Positions 3,975-59,821 of a stretch of DNA of 64,000 nucleotides are shown here, one piece after another (position 1 is the stretch's first letter; each line of letters starts with the position of its first letter). Source of the DNA: Escherichia phage fDHCT2; the sequence record OR427838.1. One strand, 5' to 3'. The notes under the pieces are model-generated. The model was not told where the DNA came from, did not search any database, and worked only from the letters and a program-made list of their open reading frames with translations. A program made the translations under genes and the position numbers.

Positions 3975-5658
<1,684 letters not shown>

Positions 5659-32262: not shown

Positions 32263-32466
32263 TCAATTCAGGTTACGTTTAAAAAGGTCTGCTACTTCAA
32301 GGAGCTCGTCCTTAGTAGCGATGTCGTTGAGTATTTTATATCTGATTTCTTTAAAGCGTTCTTTAAAATCCTCAGCTGCATTGATATCAAAAAATCGTTG
32401 GATTAACCGGAATTCTTTATGGACGGCTTTATCGAACAAATCAATATTCACTTTAAAGTTTGTCAT
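32263..32466 (-). CDS. Hypothetical small protein
   Basis: 67-aa ORF upstream of rIIA. Confidence 0.45.
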   Translation of the reverse strand: MTNFKVNIDLFDKAVHKEFRLIQRFFDINAAEDFKERFKEIRYKILNDIATKDELLEVADLFKRNLN

Positions 32467-32803
32467 TTTTAACTACCTCATGTTGAACATATTCTCTGGT
32501 AGAACCGAGTTCAGCCAGAATTCTTCTCATAGAACCCATTGTACTTTTGTGCTCTCTGTGGCGATACAATATCTCCAGAACCTTTTCCTGGACAACAGGA
32601 GAGAGCGCCTGGTTATCTTTAATCTTTAAGGCAATAGATTTTACAGCCTTAAGATATTCTAGCCCCTTACCGCTTGTAATCACTACTCCTTCATCTTTAC
32701 AGTTACGAATAGCGGTTTCCATAAAGGATAAAGCCAGGTTGTCAGTGTTCACTATACTGTTATCTTGCATAATCATATTCTCACCTCTAGATAATCCTAT
32801 CAC
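32453..32803 (-). CDS. Hypothetical protein
   Basis: 116-aa ORF. Confidence 0.45.
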   Translation of the reverse strand: MIGLSRGENMIMQDNSIVNTDNLALSFMETAIRNCKDEGVVITSGKGLEYLKAVKSIALKIKDNQALSPVVQEKVLEILYRHREHKSTMGSMRRILAELGSTREYVQHEVVKNDKL

Positions 32804-44448: not shown

Positions 44449-44970
44449 TTAATAACCTCGGTCTTGACGAGCAAAGTTCTCGGCATTTTTCAGATAATAC
44501 AGTTTAAAGATTTCTTCAGCAGTCAGACCAAGACCTTGGAACATATTCAGAACAAAGTGCAGAATATCAATCATTTCGAATTTAATTTCGAGCTGGTCTT
44601 CAGGAGAGAGTTCGTCAATACGACGATTACGGAATTCGGCATGTTGTGCCTTCCACGGCTTCCACACACTGGATGCGGCTTTCTCACCATTACTCATACC
44701 GCCAAGAGAAGTCAGAAGTTCACGGAATTCATCATCAATATAATCTTTCTGGTTGCGAAGCCAATCAACAACTTGACCTGCTGTAGCTAGTTCATCAGGA
44801 TTGGTGTTGAATTCTGATTTTTCAGTAGCCAAACGAACCTGTAATGATTTCTGCATATCAAGCATAACCTGCAGAGGGTCTTTATCTTCGTGAATCAGAG
44901 CATTAAAATAAGCTTCTTCAGCTTTATCAACACCTGCAATAAGTTGTGAGCATTCGTTAAAGTGTGCCAT
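44449..44970 (-). CDS. 56: dCTP pyrophosphatase gp56 (MazG-like)
   Basis: Start refined to ATG 44970; size and position as T4 gene 56. Confidence 0.7.
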   Translation of the reverse strand: MAHFNECSQLIAGVDKAEEAYFNALIHEDKDPLQVMLDMQKSLQVRLATEKSEFNTNPDELATAGQVVDWLRNQKDYIDDEFRELLTSLGGMSNGEKAASSVWKPWKAQHAEFRNRRIDELSPEDQLEIKFEMIDILHFVLNMFQGLGLTAEEIFKLYYLKNAENFARQDRGY

Positions 44971-50300: not shown

Positions 50301-50614
50301 CTCTTAGATTTAATTTTATCCAGTTCTTCTTGTATTTGCATTGTAACACATTTTTCTACATGAAGCGCTAGCTCTTCTTTTCGGTCTTCGGAAGGTGTTC
50401 CGAAATCAACCGACACTTTTCCATCTTTCTCAATAACAATATTCATCACATAAACGATGTGAGCAGTGCCATCGGGTAAAGTAAGCATAATTTCCTGCTT
50501 AACCGAACCCATTGACTTACGGATTATATCTAATGATTTCTCATAATAACGAGGGTCACTAGGACCCTCTTCGGTATCTTTAACAAAATTATCTAAATCA
50601 GATAAATCAGTCAT
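50285..50614 (-). CDS. 40: Hypothetical protein at gene 40 position (head vertex assembly chaperone in T4)
   Basis: 109 aa between 41 and uvsX. Confidence 0.5.
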   Translation of the reverse strand: MTDLSDLDNFVKDTEEGPSDPRYYEKSLDIIRKSMGSVKQEIMLTLPDGTAHIVYVMNIVIEKDGKVSVDFGTPSEDRKEELALHVEKCVTMQIQEELDKIKSKRWWKW

Positions 50615-51788
50615 GATCGCTCACAAAATTCATATTTTCTAAATCGTTTTCTATATCAGCGGCGCTTTGGGTATTTCCACCTAATTTAACAGCAACGTTC
50701 TTAGAGACACGAGAGTTAATAAGGTCGTTCACCGCATCGTCAACTTCTTTAATAGAATTAATTGCACCGAGCTTATACTTATTCTCGATTGCTTCACGGA
50801 ACGGAGCATGTTTAAACAGCGGTCCCCAGAACTCGACACAATCGGTAGCTTTAGCACGCCATGATTTTTCTTCTTGAACCATTTCACCTGTGGTTTCGTC
50901 AAGGAATGCACGATTATACCAACCAGCTTTAGGTTTCACAACAAAGCCAATATCAGTAGCCATTTCAAGCAATCCACTGAATGGGTCGATACCACCTTCA
51001 AAGTTCACAGTAATTGGGAACGTTGATTTCTCTTTAACAGTACGAGATTTTTCGGCCTTCAGGGTGAAGTCATAACCAGTGAGCTCGGTGCCATCTTTAA
51101 CCTGACGTTTAGAGATAAAGAATACGGTAGAAGCAGAGTACAGAATACCGGTACCGCCACCCATAATCTCTTTAGGATACATTCCACCAATTTCCATAGC
51201 CGTATGGTTAATTGCTACACAAGGGATATCCTTGATGGTCAGATAAGGTGTTACGATACGGAACAGAGATTTCAGTGACTTAGCACGGGTCATATCACCT
51301 ACAACTTTCTCGTTCAAAGCATCTTCGGTTTCTTTCTTAGAAGCGGTGTTACCGATGGAGTCGATAAAGATAATAACCTTTTCACCACGAGTAATTTCTT
51401 CTAATTGGTTGGTCATGTCAACCTTCAGTTGTTCAACTGACTGGATTGGCGTATGAACCACACGTTCCAGGTCAACACCCATTGAACGGAAATAAGATTC
51501 TGAAGCACCGAACTCAGAGTCATAGAACAAGCAAATTGCGTCTGGATATTTCTTCATATATGCTGCAACCATGGTAAGTCCAAACAATGTTTTAAAGTGT
51601 TTAGATGGAGCAGCAAAGATTGTCAAACCTGATTGTAAGCCTGCATTCAACGCACCACCCAATGCAATATTCAGCATAGGGATACGAGTAGGAACTTCGT
51701 CACGACCATTAAACAATTTGGATTTGGTCAGGTCGGCAGTCATTTTAGAAGTAGAAGCTTTAATCAAACGGGATTTTAAATCAGACAT
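50607..51788 (-). CDS. uvsX: UvsX recombinase (RecA-like)
   Basis: 393 aa (T4 UvsX 391); RecA-fold blocks. Confidence 0.92.
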   Translation of the reverse strand: MSDLKSRLIKASTSKMTADLTKSKLFNGRDEVPTRIPMLNIALGGALNAGLQSGLTIFAAPSKHFKTLFGLTMVAAYMKKYPDAICLFYDSEFGASESYFRSMGVDLERVVHTPIQSVEQLKVDMTNQLEEITRGEKVIIFIDSIGNTASKKETEDALNEKVVGDMTRAKSLKSLFRIVTPYLTIKDIPCVAINHTAMEIGGMYPKEIMGGGTGILYSASTVFFISKRQVKDGTELTGYDFTLKAEKSRTVKEKSTFPITVNFEGGIDPFSGLLEMATDIGFVVKPKAGWYNRAFLDETTGEMVQEEKSWRAKATDCVEFWGPLFKHAPFREAIENKYKLGAINSIKEVDDAVNDLINSRVSKNVAVKLGGNTQSAADIENDLENMNFVSDHD

Positions 51789-51840
51789 TATATTTTTCCA
51801 TAGGCATCATTATATTTTACTCACGTTTTAAGATAGGGTA

Positions 51841-51869
51841 ATTATATCACTTCACATTTACAGCGTTAA
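51841..51869 (-). promoter_or_regulatory. Candidate promoter for uvsX (extended -10 TGATATAAT)
   Basis: TTAACG-N17-TATAAT; downstream box resembles the early-element box (TTACCCTATC). Confidence 0.35.
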
Positions 51870-52759
51870 AGGACCACGTCCTCATAACTTGGCATTTCGT
51901 GCTCAGAATGGATATGGGCGCCGAAATAAATGAATTCAGCTAGACCAGGATGGAATACTAAACCTGGGTTCTCATGATAAATGATATGAGGTCTTGATTT
52001 CAGAATCTGATAATATTCAACCTTACTTGGTTTGAATTTAATAATCTCTACATCAGGACGATAGTCTTCACGCTTAAATGAATCATTCGGGTCGGTGATA
52101 TAAAGACGAGCACCTTCAGCCGCAGCTTGGTCTACAACTCTTTCGAATTGATAACACTTATCCGAAATACGGAATGGGTGGAAAATACCATCAATTTTAA
52201 TAGGCGCTAGACCTTCAGAGTAACGCTCAATTACTGCCGGATTAATTACCTTTTGGTCTACAAAAATCTTATCAGAGGACGCACCTCGTGACACCAGGAC
52301 GTCTTTCTGACATTGGTTCAAGACTGTAGTATAAATCGAACGTTCAACTGAAGACACGTCGGTATCAATAAACTCATCGATGTAATAACGAGGAACTTCA
52401 GGGTCCATTGTAATGTTAAAGTTGAATTGTACAGTCTGAGCACCATCATAACCAGTGATATCGGTTACTAATCCCGAGCAGTCATAGTATTCGATTAACG
52501 AATCAACGACAAACTCATTTTCGGACCAAAAATGTTTACGGGTCTCATAAGCATTTTCTTTATACCAAAGCGGCACGAAATTCAGTTCAGGAAATAATTC
52601 AATACATTCTTTGATATCGCTCGAATTTCTAGGATAAGCCAGATAATCACCTGGGCAAGCACGGTTTAAATGGAGTTGGAAATTACCGTCCTTAAGGACG
52701 GCATATTCACCTGTTTCGTAACTACGCATACTGAAAATAGGAACGATAAACAAACTCAT
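51866..52759 (-). CDS. Uncharacterised protein at the locus where T4 encodes beta-glucosyltransferase
   Basis: 297 aa; no motif I can assign; ATGA overlap with gene 42 homolog. Confidence 0.5.
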   Translation of the reverse strand: MSLFIVPIFSMRSYETGEYAVLKDGNFQLHLNRACPGDYLAYPRNSSDIKECIELFPELNFVPLWYKENAYETRKHFWSENEFVVDSLIEYYDCSGLVTDITGYDGAQTVQFNFNITMDPEVPRYYIDEFIDTDVSSVERSIYTTVLNQCQKDVLVSRGASSDKIFVDQKVINPAVIERYSEGLAPIKIDGIFHPFRISDKCYQFERVVDQAAAEGARLYITDPNDSFKREDYRPDVEIIKFKPSKVEYYQILKSRPHIIYHENPGLVFHPGLAEFIYFGAHIHSEHEMPSYEDVVL

Positions 52760-53454
52760 TTCAGGAATCCTCGAACGTAGTCAAAATCACGTTCAAATAC
52801 GTGTGCACTAACCATAGTATGGGAATACGTACCCAGACCAACACCACACTGTTCAGCAATAAAGGCCATCAGTTTACCCTGCAGATAGAAATCCAGCTGC
52901 ATAACGATAGCACAGTTCTGTGAACGCATATGAGTATGTGCATACAGACGTCCATCACGAATATAATATGTTACCGAATCGGTACATGGATATTCTAGGG
53001 ATTCGTCAGAATCAAGGAGGGCTTGGTCTTGTTCTTGGAGAATTTGGAACACAACTCGTCTCGAGTTAGGCTTTTCTTTAAGCTCTTTAAGTAGGGCTGG
53101 GAGTTGGGCCACAATTCGAGGTCCATAGAAAGTGTTGAAGTTTGCAGGCAATACGTCACTTTTCGGCTTATCAATGAACTTAGCAACATTAGGGTATTCC
53201 TTAAATGCTTCGGCAGCGTCAGTACCACCAGAAATCATAAATTTCCAAAAGGATTCGGCATATTCATAACTGATACGATTGATACGTGGGTCGGTGAATT
53301 TATAGGTGCTGGCATCCAGTACTTCTATAGAAGCAGAACCAATTTCATAACAACGTCCGATACGAGAATCAACTGCAAACTGTGGAGCTTCCAGGATTTC
53401 TTCGTTCATTTGTTTAAATGCATTTTCAAAACTAACAGCGGTAATGTGTTTCAT
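52756..53454 (-). CDS. 42: Thymidylate-synthase-fold pyrimidine hydroxymethylase/methylase, divergent gene 42 homolog
   Basis: 232 aa; blocks align to T4 dCMP hydroxymethylase: PNSRR, PCTDSVTYYIRDGRLY...MRSQN (catalytic Cys), SAHVFERDF. Confidence 0.7.
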   Translation of the reverse strand: MKHITAVSFENAFKQMNEEILEAPQFAVDSRIGRCYEIGSASIEVLDASTYKFTDPRINRISYEYAESFWKFMISGGTDAAEAFKEYPNVAKFIDKPKSDVLPANFNTFYGPRIVAQLPALLKELKEKPNSRRVVFQILQEQDQALLDSDESLEYPCTDSVTYYIRDGRLYAHTHMRSQNCAIVMQLDFYLQGKLMAFIAEQCGVGLGTYSHTMVSAHVFERDFDYVRGFLK

Positions 53455-53987
53455 TTATTCACCTTATTTTCAATATATTCGTTCAGACGTTTTAATTCTA
53501 CCATATCAACATTAAGCAAATTATTATGGCCGTCATGATTTAAGATTTTAAACACGTTTTCAAAACATGTTTCGTATTGCTGGATAGTTAGGTTGAACTC
53601 ATCTTTGGTTAATTTAATAAGGTCATCTTCGAAGTCTTCATCTAATGGATTACGGGTTAAAATAACCTCGATAACGTTAAATTCGGATTTAAACCCTTTC
53701 CAATCTTCCAGTTCTACATAAGGGTCCATTTCACCACGAAGGAATCCTGAGTAAACAATATTACTTGGATAACCACGGTCAAGGATGTAAACGAAATTAG
53801 GGTCTAAAAACTTATACAACGTCTCGACTAAAGCCTTATCATTATCAGTTCCTAATGAAATACACTTGCCATTAATCTTTTTAGGAAAATCAATAAGGCG
53901 GTATTTCTTATTGGATAACAGATTTTTAATTAAAGTGGACTTCCCGGAATTATCTGGGCCGTCTATAACAATGATTTTTGGATTCAT
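53451..53987 (-). CDS. P-loop nucleotide/nucleoside kinase (thymidylate-kinase-like)
   Basis: 178 aa; N-terminal IVIDGPDNSGKSTL Walker A. Confidence 0.55.
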   Translation of the reverse strand: MNPKIIVIDGPDNSGKSTLIKNLLSNKKYRLIDFPKKINGKCISLGTDNDKALVETLYKFLDPNFVYILDRGYPSNIVYSGFLRGEMDPYVELEDWKGFKSEFNVIEVILTRNPLDEDFEDDLIKLTKDEFNLTIQQYETCFENVFKILNHDGHNNLLNVDMVELKRLNEYIENKVNK

Positions 53988-54367
53988 GGATGATAGGCCT
54001 TATAACTATCAAGAGTTCCTTCACGAACCAATTCTTTAAAGTGGTCTGGACGGATTGCTCGGTCATCGATGATAAAAGTATAACTCGGCTTGTGTGTAAG
54101 CAAATTGTGATATTTCAATCCAATTTTTTCAAGGTTCTTAACCAATGCAGGAACTACTTCAACCAAGATTCGACCTGGGCCACATGAAGTCATGCCACGG
54201 GCAGTGAATAATGTAATCTCGTACCCTTCATCATAAAGCTTATTAATCATGGACACCATTTCGGTGTCCGGTTTAAAGTTCTCATAATCACGGTCATGGT
54301 TCCAAATCGTGATTGTGTTATCGATATCAAAACATAAATGTGGTTTATTTTCTACTCGATGCGACAT
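53984..54367 (-). CDS. HAD-superfamily phosphatase
   Basis: HAD motif I FDIDNT near N-terminus; start refined to ATG 54367 (TAATG overlap); alternative start 54382. Confidence 0.55.
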   Translation of the reverse strand: MSHRVENKPHLCFDIDNTITIWNHDRDYENFKPDTEMVSMINKLYDEGYEITLFTARGMTSCGPGRILVEVVPALVKNLEKIGLKYHNLLTHKPSYTFIIDDRAIRPDHFKELVREGTLDSYKAYHP

Positions 54368-56040
54368 TAAATTTTCTTCCATTGTTTGTGGAGTTCAGTA
54401 GAACCTGTAGGTTTATATTTTACACCAGTTTCCTGGTCAAGCAAAACCCACTTATCAGGACAACGAGTAATAATTTGAGCCGTGATAGGGTCACGAACTT
54501 CATCGACAAATTCACCAGTAATAAGCTTACGCTTACGAGGATGCCGCTTCAGCAGCACACTCAGTTGGTACAAACCGTTATAATAAGCACCCAGAGCTTT
54601 CAGAGGGTTATTCTTAAAGTAACCTGCCAGCGCCATCCAAATAACAGCAATCCAGAGCTTGTGCTTAAATGTGCACATAGGAATATCGTCTAAAGGCATA
54701 ACCTTTTCAATATCAACGAATACACGAGTTCCATTACGAGTTAATCCACCCCATAGAGGGTCTGAGTTAAATTTGTCATAGCCATCGATAGAATAAAGCA
54801 CCTTAGCTTCATCATAAATCGCAGGGCCTTTAGAACTATTACCGAAATAACCACGTGGGTCGATGATTTTAATATCACCTTCGTCCGACAGCATAATATT
54901 ACTGTAGTGCGGGTCACCATGAATAAGTTGGTACGGTTCTTTATGTTCAGACAGAATTTCTAATGCATGGCGGAGAAGTTTTTCAGGGTCGCCTACTTTG
55001 AAATCGTTGACATGGGTAATGCCCTGTGGAGCAAAGCCTTCAATCAATCCGGCAATAGAAGCATTACGAATAAGGACCTTGTCCAATACTTCTTTCTTAA
55101 CATCGGAATACCATTGTTCATCGGACGGATTATCAATAGTTCCACCAAATGAACGTAATGCACTAATGACCTTATAAACCATGAGGACTTTAGTTTCTTT
55201 GGACATAAACCGGTAGGCATCTGCCATGGTCCGACCAAAGATACGTTCCATTTTAATGAATTCGCCTGGAGAAAAGTCTACAATGCTAGGAACGAATTCA
55301 GAATCAATAGAATTATACCAATTGATTTCTTTAGATTGAATTTCTTTACCTAAATCGTTAGTTGGTACTTTAATAGCCAGATTCTCAGTGAACTCTAATT
55401 TATTAAATTCACGGTTAATTTCAGAATCTTCATGGGCCTTAGCCAGTTTCAATTTGTCACCGACATCAACCACAAAGTCCAGCTTACGTTCAGTCAAATG
55501 GACCATCGAATCCAGGTTGTCTGCAAGGTCTTCGCCATAATTAGAACGGTCGAAACCTGTCCAATTAGCCACCTGATACAAACCAACCACACCACCGCCA
55601 GTACCAATTTCACGCAAGTACGGTTCTTCAAATGTAAAACGACAGTCGGTCCCATAGGTATAACAGTAGTCGTTATCCCACTCAACTTTATGACCTTCAG
55701 GAATAATATCACACCAGTTAAACAAGACATTATGCCCAATGATATCTTCAGCAATGCAATCGATAGCATGAGCTGAACCATTAGCAACATCAACGTTACG
55801 AATAGTGAATTTAGGCTTATCACCAGTAATCATGTTAATGGATTTGATATAGCCTTTAACGAGGTCGTTAAATTTGCTGTGAATAACCAGAATAATTTCA
55901 TCTGATTGGTTACTATACAAATCATACAAATGCTTTAATACCGTATGTTGTTTGTAGTTAACCAATACCTTCGGGATTTCGTTAGTAATTGGATACAACC
56001 GTGAGCCAAGACCCGCGCCTAAAATAACAACCTTTTTCAT
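54367..56040 (-). CDS. Bifunctional sugar-1-phosphate nucleotidyltransferase (N-terminal) / sugar kinase (C-terminal)
   Basis: Start refined to ATG 56040 (GAGGAA SD); N-terminus ILGAGLGSRLYPITNEIPKVLV; C-terminal HGDPHYSNIML...IKIIDPRG Brenner-type kinase motif. Confidence 0.6.
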   Translation of the reverse strand: MKKVVILGAGLGSRLYPITNEIPKVLVNYKQHTVLKHLYDLYSNQSDEIILVIHSKFNDLVKGYIKSINMITGDKPKFTIRNVDVANGSAHAIDCIAEDIIGHNVLFNWCDIIPEGHKVEWDNDYCYTYGTDCRFTFEEPYLREIGTGGGVVGLYQVANWTGFDRSNYGEDLADNLDSMVHLTERKLDFVVDVGDKLKLAKAHEDSEINREFNKLEFTENLAIKVPTNDLGKEIQSKEINWYNSIDSEFVPSIVDFSPGEFIKMERIFGRTMADAYRFMSKETKVLMVYKVISALRSFGGTIDNPSDEQWYSDVKKEVLDKVLIRNASIAGLIEGFAPQGITHVNDFKVGDPEKLLRHALEILSEHKEPYQLIHGDPHYSNIMLSDEGDIKIIDPRGYFGNSSKGPAIYDEAKVLYSIDGYDKFNSDPLWGGLTRNGTRVFVDIEKVMPLDDIPMCTFKHKLWIAVIWMALAGYFKNNPLKALGAYYNGLYQLSVLLKRHPRKRKLITGEFVDEVRDPITAQIITRCPDKWVLLDQETGVKYKPTGSTELHKQWKKI

Positions 56041-56068
56041 TATCTGTTCCTCAAGTGAATGTAGGTAC

Positions 56069-56100
56069 ATTATACACTATTTTTAATAAATTGGTATTGC
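56069..56100 (-). promoter_or_regulatory. Candidate extended -10 promoter upstream of nucleotidyltransferase-kinase gene
   Basis: TGTATAAT on minus strand; weak -35. Confidence 0.3.
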
Positions 56101-56601
56101 TTAAATCTTATCTTTACCGATTTCAATACACTGTTCTATTGCCGCCGGTACTTTGGTCTTGAGCTTATCGATTTGTTTCTTATAATCACGAGCTTTACCG
56201 AAGCTCTCGGTTTCGAGCATTTCGTAATAACGAGCCTCGTGGATGGAAATCTGTAGATTGATATGGTTTACGCACATCGCATACAGTTTCTGCTTTTTGT
56301 ACAAATCATCTTGACGCTTCATTTCTGCCTGGTGTTTGGCTAGTACCGCTTCACGCTTAGACTCTTGTTCACGTTGGAATTCGATTTCCCTTTGAGCATA
56401 TTTTGCACAGTTATTACCGCATTGATTATTAGCTCGGGTATACACAAGTCCGGAACCAGCACGGAATTTCATTTCGCCATCGAATTGTTTCTGTTCAGCT
56501 GCGATACGAGCTTTACCAACTTCATCAGCCGAAACTGCATCGCCATATTGGACCGCGCAACCTGATAGGAGCATACTCATTGCGATAATTAACTTTTTCA
56601 T
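56101..56601 (-). CDS. Putative lipoprotein
   Basis: 166 aa; signal peptide with lipobox LLSGC; GAGGA SD. Confidence 0.55.
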   Translation of the reverse strand: MKKLIIAMSMLLSGCAVQYGDAVSADEVGKARIAAEQKQFDGEMKFRAGSGLVYTRANNQCGNNCAKYAQREIEFQREQESKREAVLAKHQAEMKRQDDLYKKQKLYAMCVNHINLQISIHEARYYEMLETESFGKARDYKKQIDKLKTKVPAAIEQCIEIGKDKI

Positions 56602-56608
56602 AATATCC

Positions 56609-56746
56609 TCAATTAAAACAGTTATACTTAATTTGTGCTATAAGAATAATCCATCCAATGATGAGTGTCGGAATCATTGGTGGAATTGCCACTGCCCAAT
56701 AAACGGTAAAGGCAGCCATTATAAGAAATAAAATAATTATCTTCAT
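56609..56746 (-). CDS. Putative 45-aa membrane peptide (not in ORF track)
   Basis: ATGA overlap with imm-like gene stop; two hydrophobic segments. Confidence 0.3.
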   Translation of the reverse strand: MKIIILFLIMAAFTVYWAVAIPPMIPTLIIGWIILIAQIKYNCFN

Positions 56747-56979
56747 TGTTTAACGATAATGATTTGTGCGTTTGATTTACGTTCAGCGACGATAGCCCAG
56801 ATTAAAGCCACTACCCAACCAATCATCGTCCACCCTAACAGGAGATTAAGGAAGAAAATTCCTACATTACTACGAGTGCCTCGCAGAAGGGCTAAAATCC
56901 ATGGTAAAAAGTAACCGATGAACATAATAACCAGAGAACCAAATCCTAAAACACCAGCACTAACGATTAAAGCTTCCAT
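56743..56979 (-). CDS. imm: Superinfection immunity protein, Imm-like
   Basis: 78 aa, two TM; LRGTRSN...LLGWTMIGWVVALIWA; T4 imm position upstream of 43. Confidence 0.55.
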   Translation of the reverse strand: MEALIVSAGVLGFGSLVIMFIGYFLPWILALLRGTRSNVGIFFLNLLLGWTMIGWVVALIWAIVAERKSNAQIIIVKQ

Positions 56980-56995
56980 TGTAATTTCCTCATGT

Positions 56996-57039
56996 AGTTG
57001 ATAGGAAGGATACTACCACGTTCCTTGTGGTATGTAAAC
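56996..57039 (-). promoter_or_regulatory. Early-type promoter element upstream of imm-like gene
   Basis: GTTTAC-N18-TAGTAT-CCTTCCTATCAACTACATGAGGAA. Confidence 0.5.
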
Positions 57040-57041
57040 AC

Positions 57042-59753
57042 TTAAAAGTCGAACATATCAAATAATGTTGCTTTTTTCTCGTAGTCGATTTTAGCAGACT
57101 CAGTAAAACCAGTCAGAGGCTTGATAAAGGTCTTTTGGAACAGTACGTTGTAGTCCATCCAACGGAGGACTTGGTCACGAATCTGAATCGGAAGTTCAAT
57201 ACCTGACGGCCACGCCATACAAGCTTCACCAAAAGGGTTGCCTTCTTTAAGCGGCAGCACATATACCTTTTCACCATCAACGATACGAGGCATGGTCAAA
57301 TCACCTGCAGAAGCACGCATGTAAGCTAAGCAACCTTTGATGTGATACGGACATTTAGAACCAGGGAAACCGCCTTCATTATATTTCTCGATGTTGTTAG
57401 CACTGGATACTGCAGCAATGCTTACATAGTTTAGTTCGTTAAATTCCTTATTAAACTGTTTGAAATACTCTTGCAAAGAGGCCTCGCCTTCTTGAAGCAT
57501 ACGACGGATACATTCTTTCAGTGCTTTCTGAACTGCTTTAGGTGTACTTGATTTCTGGGTTTCGAGGCCCATGATTTTCAAGTGTGGTTCGGCATAACGA
57601 GTACCTTCCATGTCCCAAACGTTCAGTGCATAACGTTTCTTGCCTGTCCAGAATCCACCAAGACCTTTAGAACCAAGTGGAGGACCAGCGATAGCTTCTC
57701 GGTCCATGAACATCAAGTGCTGTTTATTGTTCATGTATTCGCACATCTCACGGAAGCCTGCATCAATAGCCGGTTCCATACGTTCACGTGCAAATTTATC
57801 TAAGAAATCAACCCAGTGGTTAGTATCACGGAATTTATCTTCGCCTACTTTATTGATGATTGCGTCAGCCTTAACATAAATGGAGTCAGTATCACCATAG
57901 AGCACGAACTTCTGGTTTTCAGTCTTGCACACACCATTCAGATATTCGTTAACCTTACGTTCAATCCATTGGAGGGCCATTTGACCAAACAATGTGATTG
58001 CAGTCGCGTTCCTGAGGTCATAGTAACGGAACCATACGTTACCAAGTGCACCATAAAGGGAGTTGATAAGCAACTTACGGTTAATCTGAGCAGTCATACC
58101 TGCGACTTCAGTACGTTCGGCTTTGAACAACATTTCTTTTAAAGAAGATGCTGACAATTTTTTAATCTGAGCTTTGATTTCGTCAGAGAAGTCGAAACGA
58201 TAATCGATATCCAGTGGGCTATCAACAGACGGATTAGGATTTTCTAATGCTTCCTTAATTAACTCACCATTACGTTGAGCTGCAAGCATATAACCTTTAT
58301 GTTCTTTACGCTGTAAGAACACCTTCGTGATTTCTGTAGGAATCACGCCATCACGGTCTTTATAGTACATCATGCCGTTAGGAGAGCAACTGTAGGTGTC
58401 GCTAGGACGCGGAGCAGTTCCGGCAATATATTCATGTATCGGTGCGTTAGCGAATGTCCCTGCGATGGTCTCTGGGCTTATATTCACTTGTCGAATGATA
58501 CTCGGGTACAGAGATGTAAGGTCGAAACTCATTACATATTTGTACGCGTTAGGAATAGGTTCCTTAACGAAAGCACCTGGATAAGGTTGAACCGCATGCG
58601 ATTTGGCCTGAGGAATAACTTTACCCTGTTCTTTAAGGCTATTAAAGATAATAGCGTCCCAAGTCTTAATTGGACTGAACACCGACTGAATCTGCATCTT
58701 GGCATAGTAACCCATGTCCAGACTAAGAAGAATGAACTGGCGTTTCATATCAATCTGCACAACACGATATACGTCGATAATGTTATAGGAAATATATCGT
58801 TGGTGGTTCGTCTCACGTAACTTGGAGATAGGACCATCATATTTCAACTTACCTACTTTCAATTCATATTCAGAAACATAATCCAGAGAATAAGAAGGCT
58901 GGTTGGTAAAGCTGAATTTTTTATAAAGGTCGATATAATCCAGAACAGAGATACCGAACAGTGTAATAATTTCACGAACACCGTACATATTCTCGATAAC
59001 TTTAACACGAGTCTTACGATGCGGGCTTAATCGCTTAGCAGTGTTCTCACCAAACAGATTTTTCAGACGGTTATAAACGTATGGCACGTCAAATGATTCA
59101 ACGTTCCATCCAGTCAAAATCACAGGAGTTTTCTGTTGCCAGAAATTCAGATACTCAAGCATCATTTCTTCTTCAGAATTAAACGGAAGATAAACGATTT
59201 TGTCAATGATTTCTTGTGGAACTTCGTCACCACCTTCGTCTTGGAGTTTCTCAGCGATTTTAATCGACCACTCTTCGACCGTACCATAAGGTGAAACTAA
59301 AAGGTCAAATACATAGAATTTATCATCAATCGAGTCGTAGTGAGTAATGGCATCGATAGGATGTTTAGCCTGAGCAGGTTCAGGGAATCCATCAGGGGAT
59401 GTTACCTCGATGTCGAAGTTAGCAATACGAATCTTGGAAGAATCATACTTGATTTCTTTACGATAGGTATCAGACAAATAGGCTAATTTATAGTCGTCCA
59501 TACCAAGGGCTTCGAGACCCATATCGTCCATGCGCTTCATCCACTGAGAAGCATCGCGCATTGAATTGAATTCTTTCTTAACACAGCCCTTACCGTAGAT
59601 GTCAATATATTTTACGGCTTGCTCTGGGTTAGCATGCATAAACATTGTAGGCTTGTATGGAACTTCACGACTACGTTCGTTACCATTTTTATCGATGTAA
59701 CGTTCGAGAATATTATCACCGATTTGTTCGACTGTCAAATAGAATTCTTGCAT
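57042..59753 (-). CDS. 43: DNA polymerase gp43 (family B)
   Basis: Start refined to ATG 59753 (MQEFYLTVEQIG); 903 aa; exo motifs FDIEV, polymerase motif YGDTDS; very similar to remembered RB69 gp43. Confidence 0.95.
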   Translation of the reverse strand: MQEFYLTVEQIGDNILERYIDKNGNERSREVPYKPTMFMHANPEQAVKYIDIYGKGCVKKEFNSMRDASQWMKRMDDMGLEALGMDDYKLAYLSDTYRKEIKYDSSKIRIANFDIEVTSPDGFPEPAQAKHPIDAITHYDSIDDKFYVFDLLVSPYGTVEEWSIKIAEKLQDEGGDEVPQEIIDKIVYLPFNSEEEMMLEYLNFWQQKTPVILTGWNVESFDVPYVYNRLKNLFGENTAKRLSPHRKTRVKVIENMYGVREIITLFGISVLDYIDLYKKFSFTNQPSYSLDYVSEYELKVGKLKYDGPISKLRETNHQRYISYNIIDVYRVVQIDMKRQFILLSLDMGYYAKMQIQSVFSPIKTWDAIIFNSLKEQGKVIPQAKSHAVQPYPGAFVKEPIPNAYKYVMSFDLTSLYPSIIRQVNISPETIAGTFANAPIHEYIAGTAPRPSDTYSCSPNGMMYYKDRDGVIPTEITKVFLQRKEHKGYMLAAQRNGELIKEALENPNPSVDSPLDIDYRFDFSDEIKAQIKKLSASSLKEMLFKAERTEVAGMTAQINRKLLINSLYGALGNVWFRYYDLRNATAITLFGQMALQWIERKVNEYLNGVCKTENQKFVLYGDTDSIYVKADAIINKVGEDKFRDTNHWVDFLDKFARERMEPAIDAGFREMCEYMNNKQHLMFMDREAIAGPPLGSKGLGGFWTGKKRYALNVWDMEGTRYAEPHLKIMGLETQKSSTPKAVQKALKECIRRMLQEGEASLQEYFKQFNKEFNELNYVSIAAVSSANNIEKYNEGGFPGSKCPYHIKGCLAYMRASAGDLTMPRIVDGEKVYVLPLKEGNPFGEACMAWPSGIELPIQIRDQVLRWMDYNVLFQKTFIKPLTGFTESAKIDYEKKATLFDMFDF

Positions 59754-59821
59754 TTCATTTCCTTTATAGACGAGTGATTGTCTTTTGTTTGTTGATGAAT
59801 CATTATACTCCAAAAAGGGAC

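Follow-up and report, generated by a model that had tools for sequence, protein, structure and literature searches.

The interval between uvsX and gene 43 of Escherichia phage fDHCT2 very probably encodes the Dhakavirus version of the arabinosyl-5-hydroxycytosine (ara-5hoC) DNA hypermodification pathway, with the product in virion DNA predicted from sequence homology. This cassette is already known, since Lee et al. (NAR 2026, PMC13326640) list Dhakaviruses as carrying the cluster and extend 5hodC biosynthesis to them. Since the biology was published in 2025–2026, the DNA analysed here contributes one more example, still uncharacterized, and not a new finding.

Locus and gene layout

The window (64,000 nucleotides of OR427838.1) comes from a JS98/JS10-like Dhakavirus (96% DNA identity). 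Five co-oriented ORFs lie on the minus strand at 51866–56070, and successive genes overlap by 4, 4, 4, and 16 nt with ATGA-type junctions. The original prediction had placed five co-oriented, overlapping genes between uvsX and gene 43, and its limits were identical to those in the ORF list. The features of the locus are as follows.

About 44452–44970, minus strand: gp56 dCTPase/dUTPase, outside the cassette (JS98 gp56 homology, Pfam dUTPase_2)
50607–51788: uvsX, one flank
51866–52759, minus strand: predicted DNA arabinosyltransferase 1, compact GT-B, 297 aa (homolog of RB69 gp46:47 / DLP3 gp79)
52756–53454, minus strand: TS-fold predicted 5-hydroxy-dCMP synthase, 232 aa (homology, PDB match, signature residues)
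53451–53987, minus strand: thymidylate-kinase-like P-loop kinase, RB69 gp45 homolog, 178 aa (phrog_761, homology)
53984–54382, minus strand: AfhF-like HAD phosphatase, 132 aa (TIGR01689, RB69 gp51 / HY126 AfhF homology, PDB)
54367–56070, minus strand: AfhE-like bifunctional enzyme, 567 aa (Pfam, NCBIfam, homology to HY126 AfhE and RB69 ORF052/053)
57042–59813: gene 43, other flank

On the gene 43 side, the cassette is flanked by an ORF for a lipoprotein-like product of 166 aa, an ORF of 45 aa, and imm (Pfam Imm_superinfect, 5e-18), in addition to gene 43 itself. T4 had been described as having beta-gt, gene 42, and imm between uvsX and gene 43; this is correct, with segA and imm.1 as further T4 genes in that interval. 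The slot between gene 43 and uvsX is syntenic with that of RB69, HY126, Bas46, LC53, and P545. Hundreds of phage genomes encode homologs of each of the five proteins over the entire length, indicating that the ORFs are real genes and not chance ORFs.

Homology, motifs, and fold of the cassette proteins were observed in this analysis. All five are full-length homologs of RB69 ORF045–053 and HY126 Afh proteins, and their identities to HY126 were 80% (TS), 67% (GT), 63% (HAD), 43% (AfhE), and 38% (kinase). The suggested correspondence with the arabinose system of RB69 was thus supported. No T4-type gp42 or glucosyltransferase was found in the window, and none was reported for JS98 (Petrov et al. 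2010). Profile searches upheld the predicted domains (Thymidylat_synt, 4e-14; phrog_761 P-loop; TIGR01689 HAD; NTP_transferase and APH). The gp56 dCTPase was likewise present as predicted, with 90% identity to JS98 gp56, a Pfam dUTPase_2 match (2e-6), and agreement with the JS98 annotation.

Sugar activation, transfer, and the reduced gene set

The 567-aa protein contains NTP_transferase (3e-8, residues 13–110) and APH (1.5e-5, residues 356–427) domains in one polypeptide. Its N-terminal domain matches NCBIfam sugar-1-P nucleotidylyltransferase models and carries the nucleotidyltransferase motif G20-x-G-x-R...PK34 (GLGSR...PK, 20–34). The APH/choline-kinase-fold motifs H384-G-D-x4-N391 (HGDPHYSN) and IID402–404 are in the C-terminal domain. 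These catalytic motifs align with those of HY126, LC53, and DLP3, and the protein shows 42.5% full-length identity with HY126 AfhE and RB69 ORF052/053. According to He et al. 2026 as cited in PMC13326640, HY126 AfhE functions as an Ara-5-P 1-kinase and UDP-arabinose pyrophosphorylase. By homology, the window protein is predicted to be a D-arabinose-5-P 1-kinase and UDP-arabinofuranose pyrophosphorylase.

The HAD protein (TIGR01689, capsule biosynthesis phosphatase, 6e-15) has motif I D19-I-D-N-T23 (DxDxT), is 62–63% identical to RB69 gp51 and HY126 AfhF, and matches PDB 9iqw (E 3e-54) and 1xpj (9e-12). It is predicted to strip the 5-phosphate from arabinose-1,5-bisphosphate. The nucleotidyltransferase-kinase and HAD protein match AfhE and AfhF, which are sugar-pathway enzymes. 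This agrees with the proposal that a phosphatase, a kinase, and a nucleotidyltransferase in a hypermodification cassette make an activated NDP-sugar, here predicted to be an NDP-pentose. The proposed order, phosphatase first, needs correction: the published order starts with the C1-kinase acting on Ara-5-P, followed by 5-phosphate removal and uridylyl transfer.

The P-loop kinase matches phrog_761 'thymidylate kinase' (7e-40) and carries Walker A G10PDNSGKS17 and D70-R-G-Y. Its identity is 38% with RB69 gp45 and with the corresponding kinase of HY126, and 78% with the kinase of Marfavirus P545; a sequence search for a PDB relative found none. Its similarity to thymidylate kinases points to a kinase of nucleotides, not of sugars, with 5-hydroxy-dCMP as the probable substrate.

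The 297-aa protein, previously left as an unknown, is a GT-B fold glycosyltransferase homologous to RB69 gp46:47 and DLP3 gp79 (67% identity with HY126 GT and 50% with DLP3 GT1). Its predicted role is that of a DNA arabinosyltransferase putting the first arabinose on 5-hydroxycytosine in DNA. In Table 1 of Lee et al. (PMC13326640), DLP3 gp76/77 are the only transferases marked 'confirmed experimentally', and DLP3 gp79 and RB69 gp46:47 are listed as putative transferases.

tblastn detected no match in the window to RB69 gp55 (arabinose-5-P isomerase), gp50 (U32), or gp3 (second transferase); gp3 was also missing at the rIIA–topoisomerase site, and the U32/chorismate-mutase pair was absent from the window cassette. 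In phage-wide searches, gp55, gp50, and gp3 each matched 137 Escherichia records, identical for the three proteins, compared with 176 for AfhE; the matches listed for these three proteins included no Dhakavirus. Judging by record counts, no Dhakavirus was found to have the isomerase. Since all characterized ara-5hoC phages encode an arabinose-5-P isomerase, the sugar or nucleotide carrier could differ here.

The clade without the isomerase (Dhakavirus, Marfavirus P545, and Providencia PSTCR6) coincides exactly with the clade in which the AfhE-like enzyme and kinase are outliers, showing 38–44% identity to three characterized phages that share 46–72% across subfamilies. For AfhE, the values were 42–44% to the three phages and 57–72% among them. 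Of the positions invariant in this trio, 181/290 (62%) are kept in the window protein, and 50 substitutions, several non-conservative, are fixed in the clade.

This divergence and the coincident isomerase loss favour an alternative that we regard as unlikely, in which the base is the same 5-hydroxycytosine and the Dhaka/Marfa-type AfhE, HAD, and kinase activate another sugar phosphate or NTP, giving DNA with a non-arabinose glycoside or with arabinose added by another route. The altered gene order, with the kinase moved beside HAD, also fits, as does the use of 5hoC as a platform for different sugars, e.g., hexoses in RL38J1 (Lee et al., PMC13326640). However, the transferase (67%) and HAD protein (63–69%) show the closeness to the arabinose phages expected from phylogeny, and the catalytic motifs are all conserved. 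Host KdsD and GutQ make Ara-5-P in every enterobacterium (Kdo pathway); therefore, a phage isomerase would be dispensable. The missing U32 gene is tolerable because DLP3 makes tri-arabinosyl-5hoC without U32. With similarly low probability, the block for sugar activation in Dhakavirus, Marfavirus, and PSTCR6, made up of the AfhE-like enzyme, HAD, and TMPK-like kinase, would have evolved separately or been exchanged; it would function with no phage isomerase and have shifted specificity, yielding a 5hoC decoration other than the Mosigvirus-type arabinofuranoside or using another precursor or nucleotide carrier.

The base-modifying enzyme and the acceptor base

The TS-fold protein had been taken for a divergent gene 42 homolog. 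It shares 79–80% identity with RB69 gp48 and its HY126 counterpart and 72% with DLP3 gp80, and matches PDB 9iqu/9iqc/9ir2 with E values of about 1e-126 to 3e-126. The PDB titles name no phage; these entries and 9iqw are probably HY126 enzymes. 5-Hydroxy-dCMP synthase activity has been shown for RB69 gp48 and DLP3 gp80, and the orthologs make 5-hydroxy-dCMP with 18O2 incorporation and bound flavin (PMC13326640). In the alignment, the window protein has Asn (RSQN) where E. coli ThyA has D169 (RSCD; RSND in T4 gp42), and RB69, HY126, and P545 have Asn as well. This D169N signature has been proposed as diagnostic by Lee et al. (PMC13326640). The catalytic Cys (C157, equivalent to E. coli C146) is invariant. 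The equivalents of N177D (dCMP-selecting Asp; QLD vs PFN in E. coli) and L143E (acidic residue; LEYPC vs ALAPC) are present and common to T4 gp42. Orthology with gp42 was rejected on the basis of 25% identity over 159 aa, an E value of 6e-6 to 1b49, and replacement of the folate-contacting Asp by Asn. The TS-fold protein is instead an ortholog of the flavin/O2-dependent dCMP C5-hydroxylase, its activity being predicted from the orthologs.

It is very improbable that this protein acts as a dCMP hydroxymethylase of the gene 42 type and that the sugar is on hydroxymethylcytosine (ara-hmC), a view for which the TS-superfamily fold, the N177D and L143E residues shared with gp42, the dCMP hydroxymethylase label in older literature and several GenBank records, and the ara-hmC report for RB69 (Thomas et al. 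2018) can be cited. Enzymes 79–80% identical to it make 5-hydroxy-dCMP, the Asn lies where gp42 keeps Asp, and the RB69 assignment has been revised to ether-linked 5hoC by NMR and MS (PMC13326640; PMC13390438), so that this view is already contradicted for the orthologs. The acceptor base of the family is 5-hydroxycytosine with ether-linked arabinose and not hydroxymethylcytosine (PMC13326640; PMC13390438), contrary to the hydroxymethyl-pyrimidine acceptor first proposed.

Least probable of all is a decaying remnant with bare 5-hydroxycytosine or unmodified C in the DNA: the gene set is smaller than in Mosigvirus, Winklervirus, and Marfavirus (no isomerase, U32/chorismate-mutase pair, or second transferase), but the five ORFs are intact, translationally coupled, and 95–99% conserved in about 50 Dhakavirus genomes with their catalytic motifs kept, gp56 is in the window, and denA, denB, and alc are listed for Dhakavirus and JS98 in published tables, implying full cytosine replacement.

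Proposed pathway and comparison with known systems

For ara-5hoC formation, the preferred reading, we propose a scheme whose enzyme activities would carry over from experiments with RB69, DLP3, and HY126. Upstream of the cassette, gp56 would produce dCMP and deplete dCTP. The TS-fold enzyme would use flavin and O2 to convert dCMP to 5-hydroxy-dCMP at C5. Phage and host kinases, probably including the encoded TMPK-like kinase, would convert this to the triphosphate, and gp43 would put 5-hydroxy-dCTP into DNA instead of dCTP. The AfhE-like enzyme, through its kinase domain, would phosphorylate D-arabinose-5-phosphate at C1; because the phage encodes no isomerase, this substrate would have to be made by host KdsD/GutQ. 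The HAD phosphatase would then take off the 5-phosphate, the nucleotidyltransferase domain would form UDP-arabinofuranose, and the GT-B transferase would move arabinose to the 5-hydroxyl of cytosine in DNA. DNA modified in this way would be shielded from restriction and CRISPR nucleases. Since only one transferase gene was found within the 64-kb window, mono-arabinosylation is predicted.

Depending on what the modification is, a therapeutic T-even-like phage evades or triggers different restriction, CRISPR, and type IV (GmrSD/BrxU-type) defences; the modification also bears on sequencing, cutting, and engineering of phage DNA. JS98-type phages have been used in oral phage-therapy work. What substitutes for glucosylation in these phages is a long-open question (Petrov et al. 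2010), to which the predicted answer is mono-arabinosyl-5-hydroxycytosine made from host Ara-5-P. With five genes, the set would be smaller than any other arabinosylation module at the compared loci and useful for reconstitution.

The Mosigvirus phages RB69, HY126, and Bas46–47 (RB69 ORF045–055 and ORF003; HY126 Afh genes) use the same slot as the window. They share homologs of the synthase (80%), GT1 (67%), HAD (63%), AfhE (43%), and kinase (38%), and RB69 ORF054 is homologous to the 45-aa ORF. In contrast, the window is without the gp55 isomerase, gp50 (U32 'peptidase') and the small ORF gp49 behind it, and transferase gp3. Its kinase gene lies between the HAD and TS homologs rather than after GT as in Mosigvirus, and its imm and lipoprotein gene adjoin gene 43.

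Klebsiella Marfavirus vB_Kpn_P545 is the closest non-Dhakavirus relative (AfhE 80%, HAD 82%, kinase 78%, TS 87%, and GT 68%). It has the same gene order (AfhE–HAD–kinase ... TS–GT) and likewise no A5P isomerase, but keeps the U32 peptidase and chorismate mutase between the kinase and TS, a pair that the window lost or never had. Acinetobacter phage DLP3 (Lazarusvirus) has an isomerase–AfhE–HAD–TS–GT1–kinase core that, like the window, is without U32 (TS 72%, GT1 50%). Besides the isomerase, it has two extra GT4-type transferases (gp76 and gp77) that build the tri-arabinoside, neither with a homolog in the window.

The glucosyl-hmC system of T4 (gp42, alpha-gt, and beta-gt) occupies the same locus and follows the same logic: gp56, a TS-superfamily dCMP C5 enzyme, and post-replicative UDP-sugar transfer by a GT-B enzyme. 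Its beta-gt has no homolog in the window, and gp42 is 25% identical to the TS homolog. T4 needs no sugar-activation genes because it uses host UDP-glucose. T4 carries out folate-dependent hydroxymethylation, whereas the relatives of the window enzyme carry out flavin/O2 hydroxylation.

Organization of the cassette locus

The original prediction of five co-oriented, overlapping ORFs at 51866-56070 was exact in its coordinates, and all five are on the minus strand. Its domain calls (thymidylate-synthase [TS] fold, P-loop kinase, HAD phosphatase, and nucleotidyltransferase-kinase fusion) were upheld by profile searches, which found no Pfam family for the 297-aa protein. Successive genes overlap by 4, 4, 4, and 16 nt, suggesting that they are translationally coupled. 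T4 was correctly said to carry b-gt, 42, and imm between uvsX and gene 43; the whole T4 interval reads segA, b-gt, 42, imm, and imm.1.

Features of the cassette locus. Identities to RB69 and HY126 proteins were obtained by tblastn of those proteins against the window.
50607-51788; uvsX, downstream of the cassette
51866-52759, minus; predicted DNA arabinosyltransferase 1 (GT), 297 aa; colinear with RB69 gp47 and gp46, and 67% identical to the transferase of HY126
52756-53454, minus; TS homolog, 232 aa, thymidylate-synthase fold; 79-80% identity to the RB69/HY126 counterpart
53451-53987, minus; P-loop kinase, 178 aa; 38% identity to the RB69/HY126 counterpart
53984-54382, minus; HAD phosphatase, 132 aa; 62-63% identity to the RB69/HY126 counterpart
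54367-56070, minus; AfhE-like nucleotidyltransferase fused to an APH-type kinase, 567 aa; 42.5% identity to the RB69/HY126 counterpart over its full length
56101-56601, minus; phrog_1754 ORF, 166 aa, carrying a lipoprotein-type signal (MKKLIIAMSMLLSGC); separates the cassette from imm together with the 45-aa ORF
56609-56746, minus; hydrophobic ORF of 45 aa; its homologs are RB69 ORF054 and a 47-aa ORF of HY126
57042-59813; gene 43, upstream of the cassette together with imm and the 45-aa and 166-aa ORFs

The 166-aa and 45-aa ORFs probably encode membrane or superinfection-exclusion proteins. A 29% homolog of the former adjoins the isomerase gene of Serratia phage LC53, and small ORFs of the RB69 ORF054 type lie directly upstream of AfhE in HY126, RB69, and Bas46.

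When 50500-57200 was scanned for sigma-70 promoters and terminators, sites were no more frequent than in shuffled sequence, and MotA-box-like matches at the locus fell within coding sequence. The uvsX-GT spacer (51789-51865) contains a good sigma-70-like match, TTAACG-17-TATAAT with TG, directed into uvsX. This spacer measures 77 bp versus ~200 bp in JS98 (L005:21867-22068), JS10, and EcWhh-1; therefore, the matches of the window to these phages are split in two. The DNA of the cassette interval is 96% identical to that of the Dhakaviruses JS98, JS10, EcWhh-1, and CLB_P2, whose records mostly name the cassette genes hypothetical, 'thymidylate kinase', or 'phosphoheptose isomerase'. The JS98 record already calls them RB69 orf047c-, 048c-, 045c-, 051c-, and 052c-like.

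Correspondence with cytosine-arabinosylation enzymes

All five proteins have homologs in RB69 and HY126 (tblastn), which bears out the proposed NDP-sugar logic and link to RB69 and arabinose; the 297-aa protein, an unknown in the original prediction, corresponds to the HY126 transferase and RB69 gp47 plus gp46. Lee et al. (NAR 2026, PMC13326640) reported that cytosine in RB69 and Acinetobacter phage DLP3 is replaced by mono- to tri-arabinosylated 5-hydroxycytosine (5hoC), with the sugar ether-linked straight to C5. Hydroxymethyl-pyrimidine had been proposed as the acceptor; the base of this family is 5hoC, and ara-hmC, previously assigned to RB69, has since been called an error (PMC13326640; PMC13390438). 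5-Hydroxy-dCMP is supplied by a flavin-binding thymidylate-synthase homolog (RB69 gp48, DLP3 gp80) that takes its oxygen from O2 (PMC13326640). For RB69, the assignments of the same authors are arabinosyltransferase 1 for gp46:47, a second transferase for gp3, a nucleotide kinase for gp45, and arabinose-5-phosphate (Ara-5-P) isomerase for gp55 (PMC13326640). With reference to HY126 work by He et al. (Nat Chem Biol 2026), that paper treats gp52:53 (AfhE) as a bifunctional Ara-5-P 1-kinase/UDP-arabinose pyrophosphorylase and assigns the conversion of Ara-1,5-P2 to Ara-1-P to the phosphatase gp51 (AfhF); on this account the kinase precedes the phosphatase, whereas the original prediction placed the phosphatase first. 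The system has thus been described, and Lee et al. extended the cluster to genera including the Dhakaviruses (PMC13326640).

In the PDB, the TS homolog matched 9iqu/9iqc/9ir2 at E 3e-126 and T4 gp42 (1b49) at just 6e-6. We aligned it with T4 gp42, the td of the window, and E. coli ThyA, which served for numbering only. The catalytic Cys is kept, and Asp, Glu, and Asn occur at N177, L143, and D169, respectively. The Asn at D169 is the signature proposed for 5hodCMP synthases by Lee et al. (PMC13326640), whereas T4 gp42 has Asp at this position. As judged from sequence, the 'gene 42 homolog' is thus an ortholog of dCMP 5-hydroxylase and no hydroxymethylase. At 3975-5413 (minus), the phage also encodes a canonical td (Pfam 4e-98) and a dihydrofolate reductase, frd, so a normal folate-dependent TS is kept beside the flavin-type homolog.

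The HAD protein matched 9iqw (E 3e-54) and carries DIDNT (19-23). The PDB sequence search gave no significant match for the 297-aa protein or the P-loop kinase, and modelling was needed to obtain the fold. The kinase has a Walker A motif, GPDNSGKS (10-17), and DRGY (70-73), and is thymidylate-kinase-like; the AfhE-like enzyme has GLGSR...PK (20-34), HGDPHYSN (384-391), and IID (402-404). Overall, the original observation was confirmed and its interpretation partly supported.

Divergence of the AfhE-like enzyme and kinase

In an all-vs-all comparison, the window's GT, HAD, and TS homolog stood at roughly the distance from HY126 and LC53 expected from phylogeny, and the AfhE-like enzyme and P-loop kinase were outliers. 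The AfhE-like enzyme shares 42-44% identity with those of HY126, LC53, and DLP3, versus 57-72% among those three, and the kinase 38-43% versus 46-68%. For both proteins, HY126 is nearer to DLP3, a phage of another subfamily, than to the window. Within 53451-56070, the AfhE-like enzyme and kinase of the Dhaka/Marfa clade lie much farther from their Mosigvirus, Winklervirus, and Lazarusvirus counterparts than do the neighbouring TS, GT, and HAD. This contrast points to mosaicism in the origin of the cassette's left half.

HY126, LC53, and DLP3 share 290 invariant AfhE positions, only 181 of which are kept in the Dhaka/Marfa/PSTCR6 clade; the catalytic motifs are intact. The clade also shows 50 fixed switches, some of them non-conservative, and its divergence goes together with the lack of an isomerase and a kinase gene adjoining HAD. 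We take mosaic inheritance as the likeliest reading, with a faster-evolving module whose function is unchanged; a shift in sugar or nucleotide specificity is an improbable alternative. Providencia phage PSTCR6 has two kinase paralogs in tandem. A division of the kinases into two clean subtypes was dropped because both PSTCR6 kinases are ~40% identical to everything.

Reduced gene content and comparison with named systems

By tblastn, homologs of the Ara-5-P isomerase gp55, the U32-family gp50, gp49 (the small ORF after gp50 in RB69), and the second transferase gp3 are all absent from the window. The rIIA-topoisomerase site, where gp3 lies in RB69, holds only small, unrelated ORFs, namely rIIA.1, a DUF7367 ORF, and a 59-aa ORF.
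32453-32803, minus; 116-aa DUF7367 protein (Pfam 4e-44), between rIIA.1 and topoisomerase gene 39, at the site of the Mosigvirus second arabinosyltransferase

In a phage-wide tblastn, gp55, gp3, and gp50 matched the identical 137 Escherichia records, versus 176 for the AfhE-like enzyme, and no Dhakavirus was among the matches listed in any identity band. This suggests that none of the three genes occurs in the genus, JS98 having been examined over its first 50 kb and absence elsewhere in the genome being taken from the record counts. A GT1-family HMM, T4 beta-gt, and DLP3 gp76/77 matched only the 297-aa ORF in the window, and mono-arabinosylation is predicted since no other transferase was found. 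Ara-5-P, a universal Kdo precursor, is made by host KdsD/GutQ, which may well make an isomerase of the phage's own dispensable.

The U32-family 'peptidase' of relatives is 83-89% identical across genera, exceeding AfhE conservation, and in every case a small type II chorismate mutase (Pfam CM_2, 1e-11) comes after it.

U32-chorismate mutase pairs in relatives.
L003:11120-12525; RB69, gp50 and gp49
L008:6992-8502; LC53
L006:9187-10589; P545

The pair is absent from the window. TrhP and UbiU/V exemplify U32 hydroxylases that depend on prephenate and work without O2; TrhP produces 5-hydroxyuridine in tRNA. The pair could provide an anaerobic route to C5-hydroxylated cytosine as a backup for the O2-dependent TS homolog. 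In the paper of Lee et al., gp50 is described only as a 'sugar or heterocycle reductase' (PMC13326640), and our literature search found no paper linking the pair to anaerobic cytosine hydroxylation. DLP3 produces tri-arabinosyl-5hoC without a U32 gene; therefore, this gene is not required.

Outside the genus, Klebsiella Marfavirus P545 comes closest (AfhE 80%, HAD 82%, kinase 78%, and TS 87%). It shares the gene order of the window, AfhE-HAD-kinase-[U32-chorismate mutase]-TS-GT, and likewise has no isomerase. Judged by gene content and order, the Dhakavirus cassette looks like the P545 arrangement minus the U32 pair.
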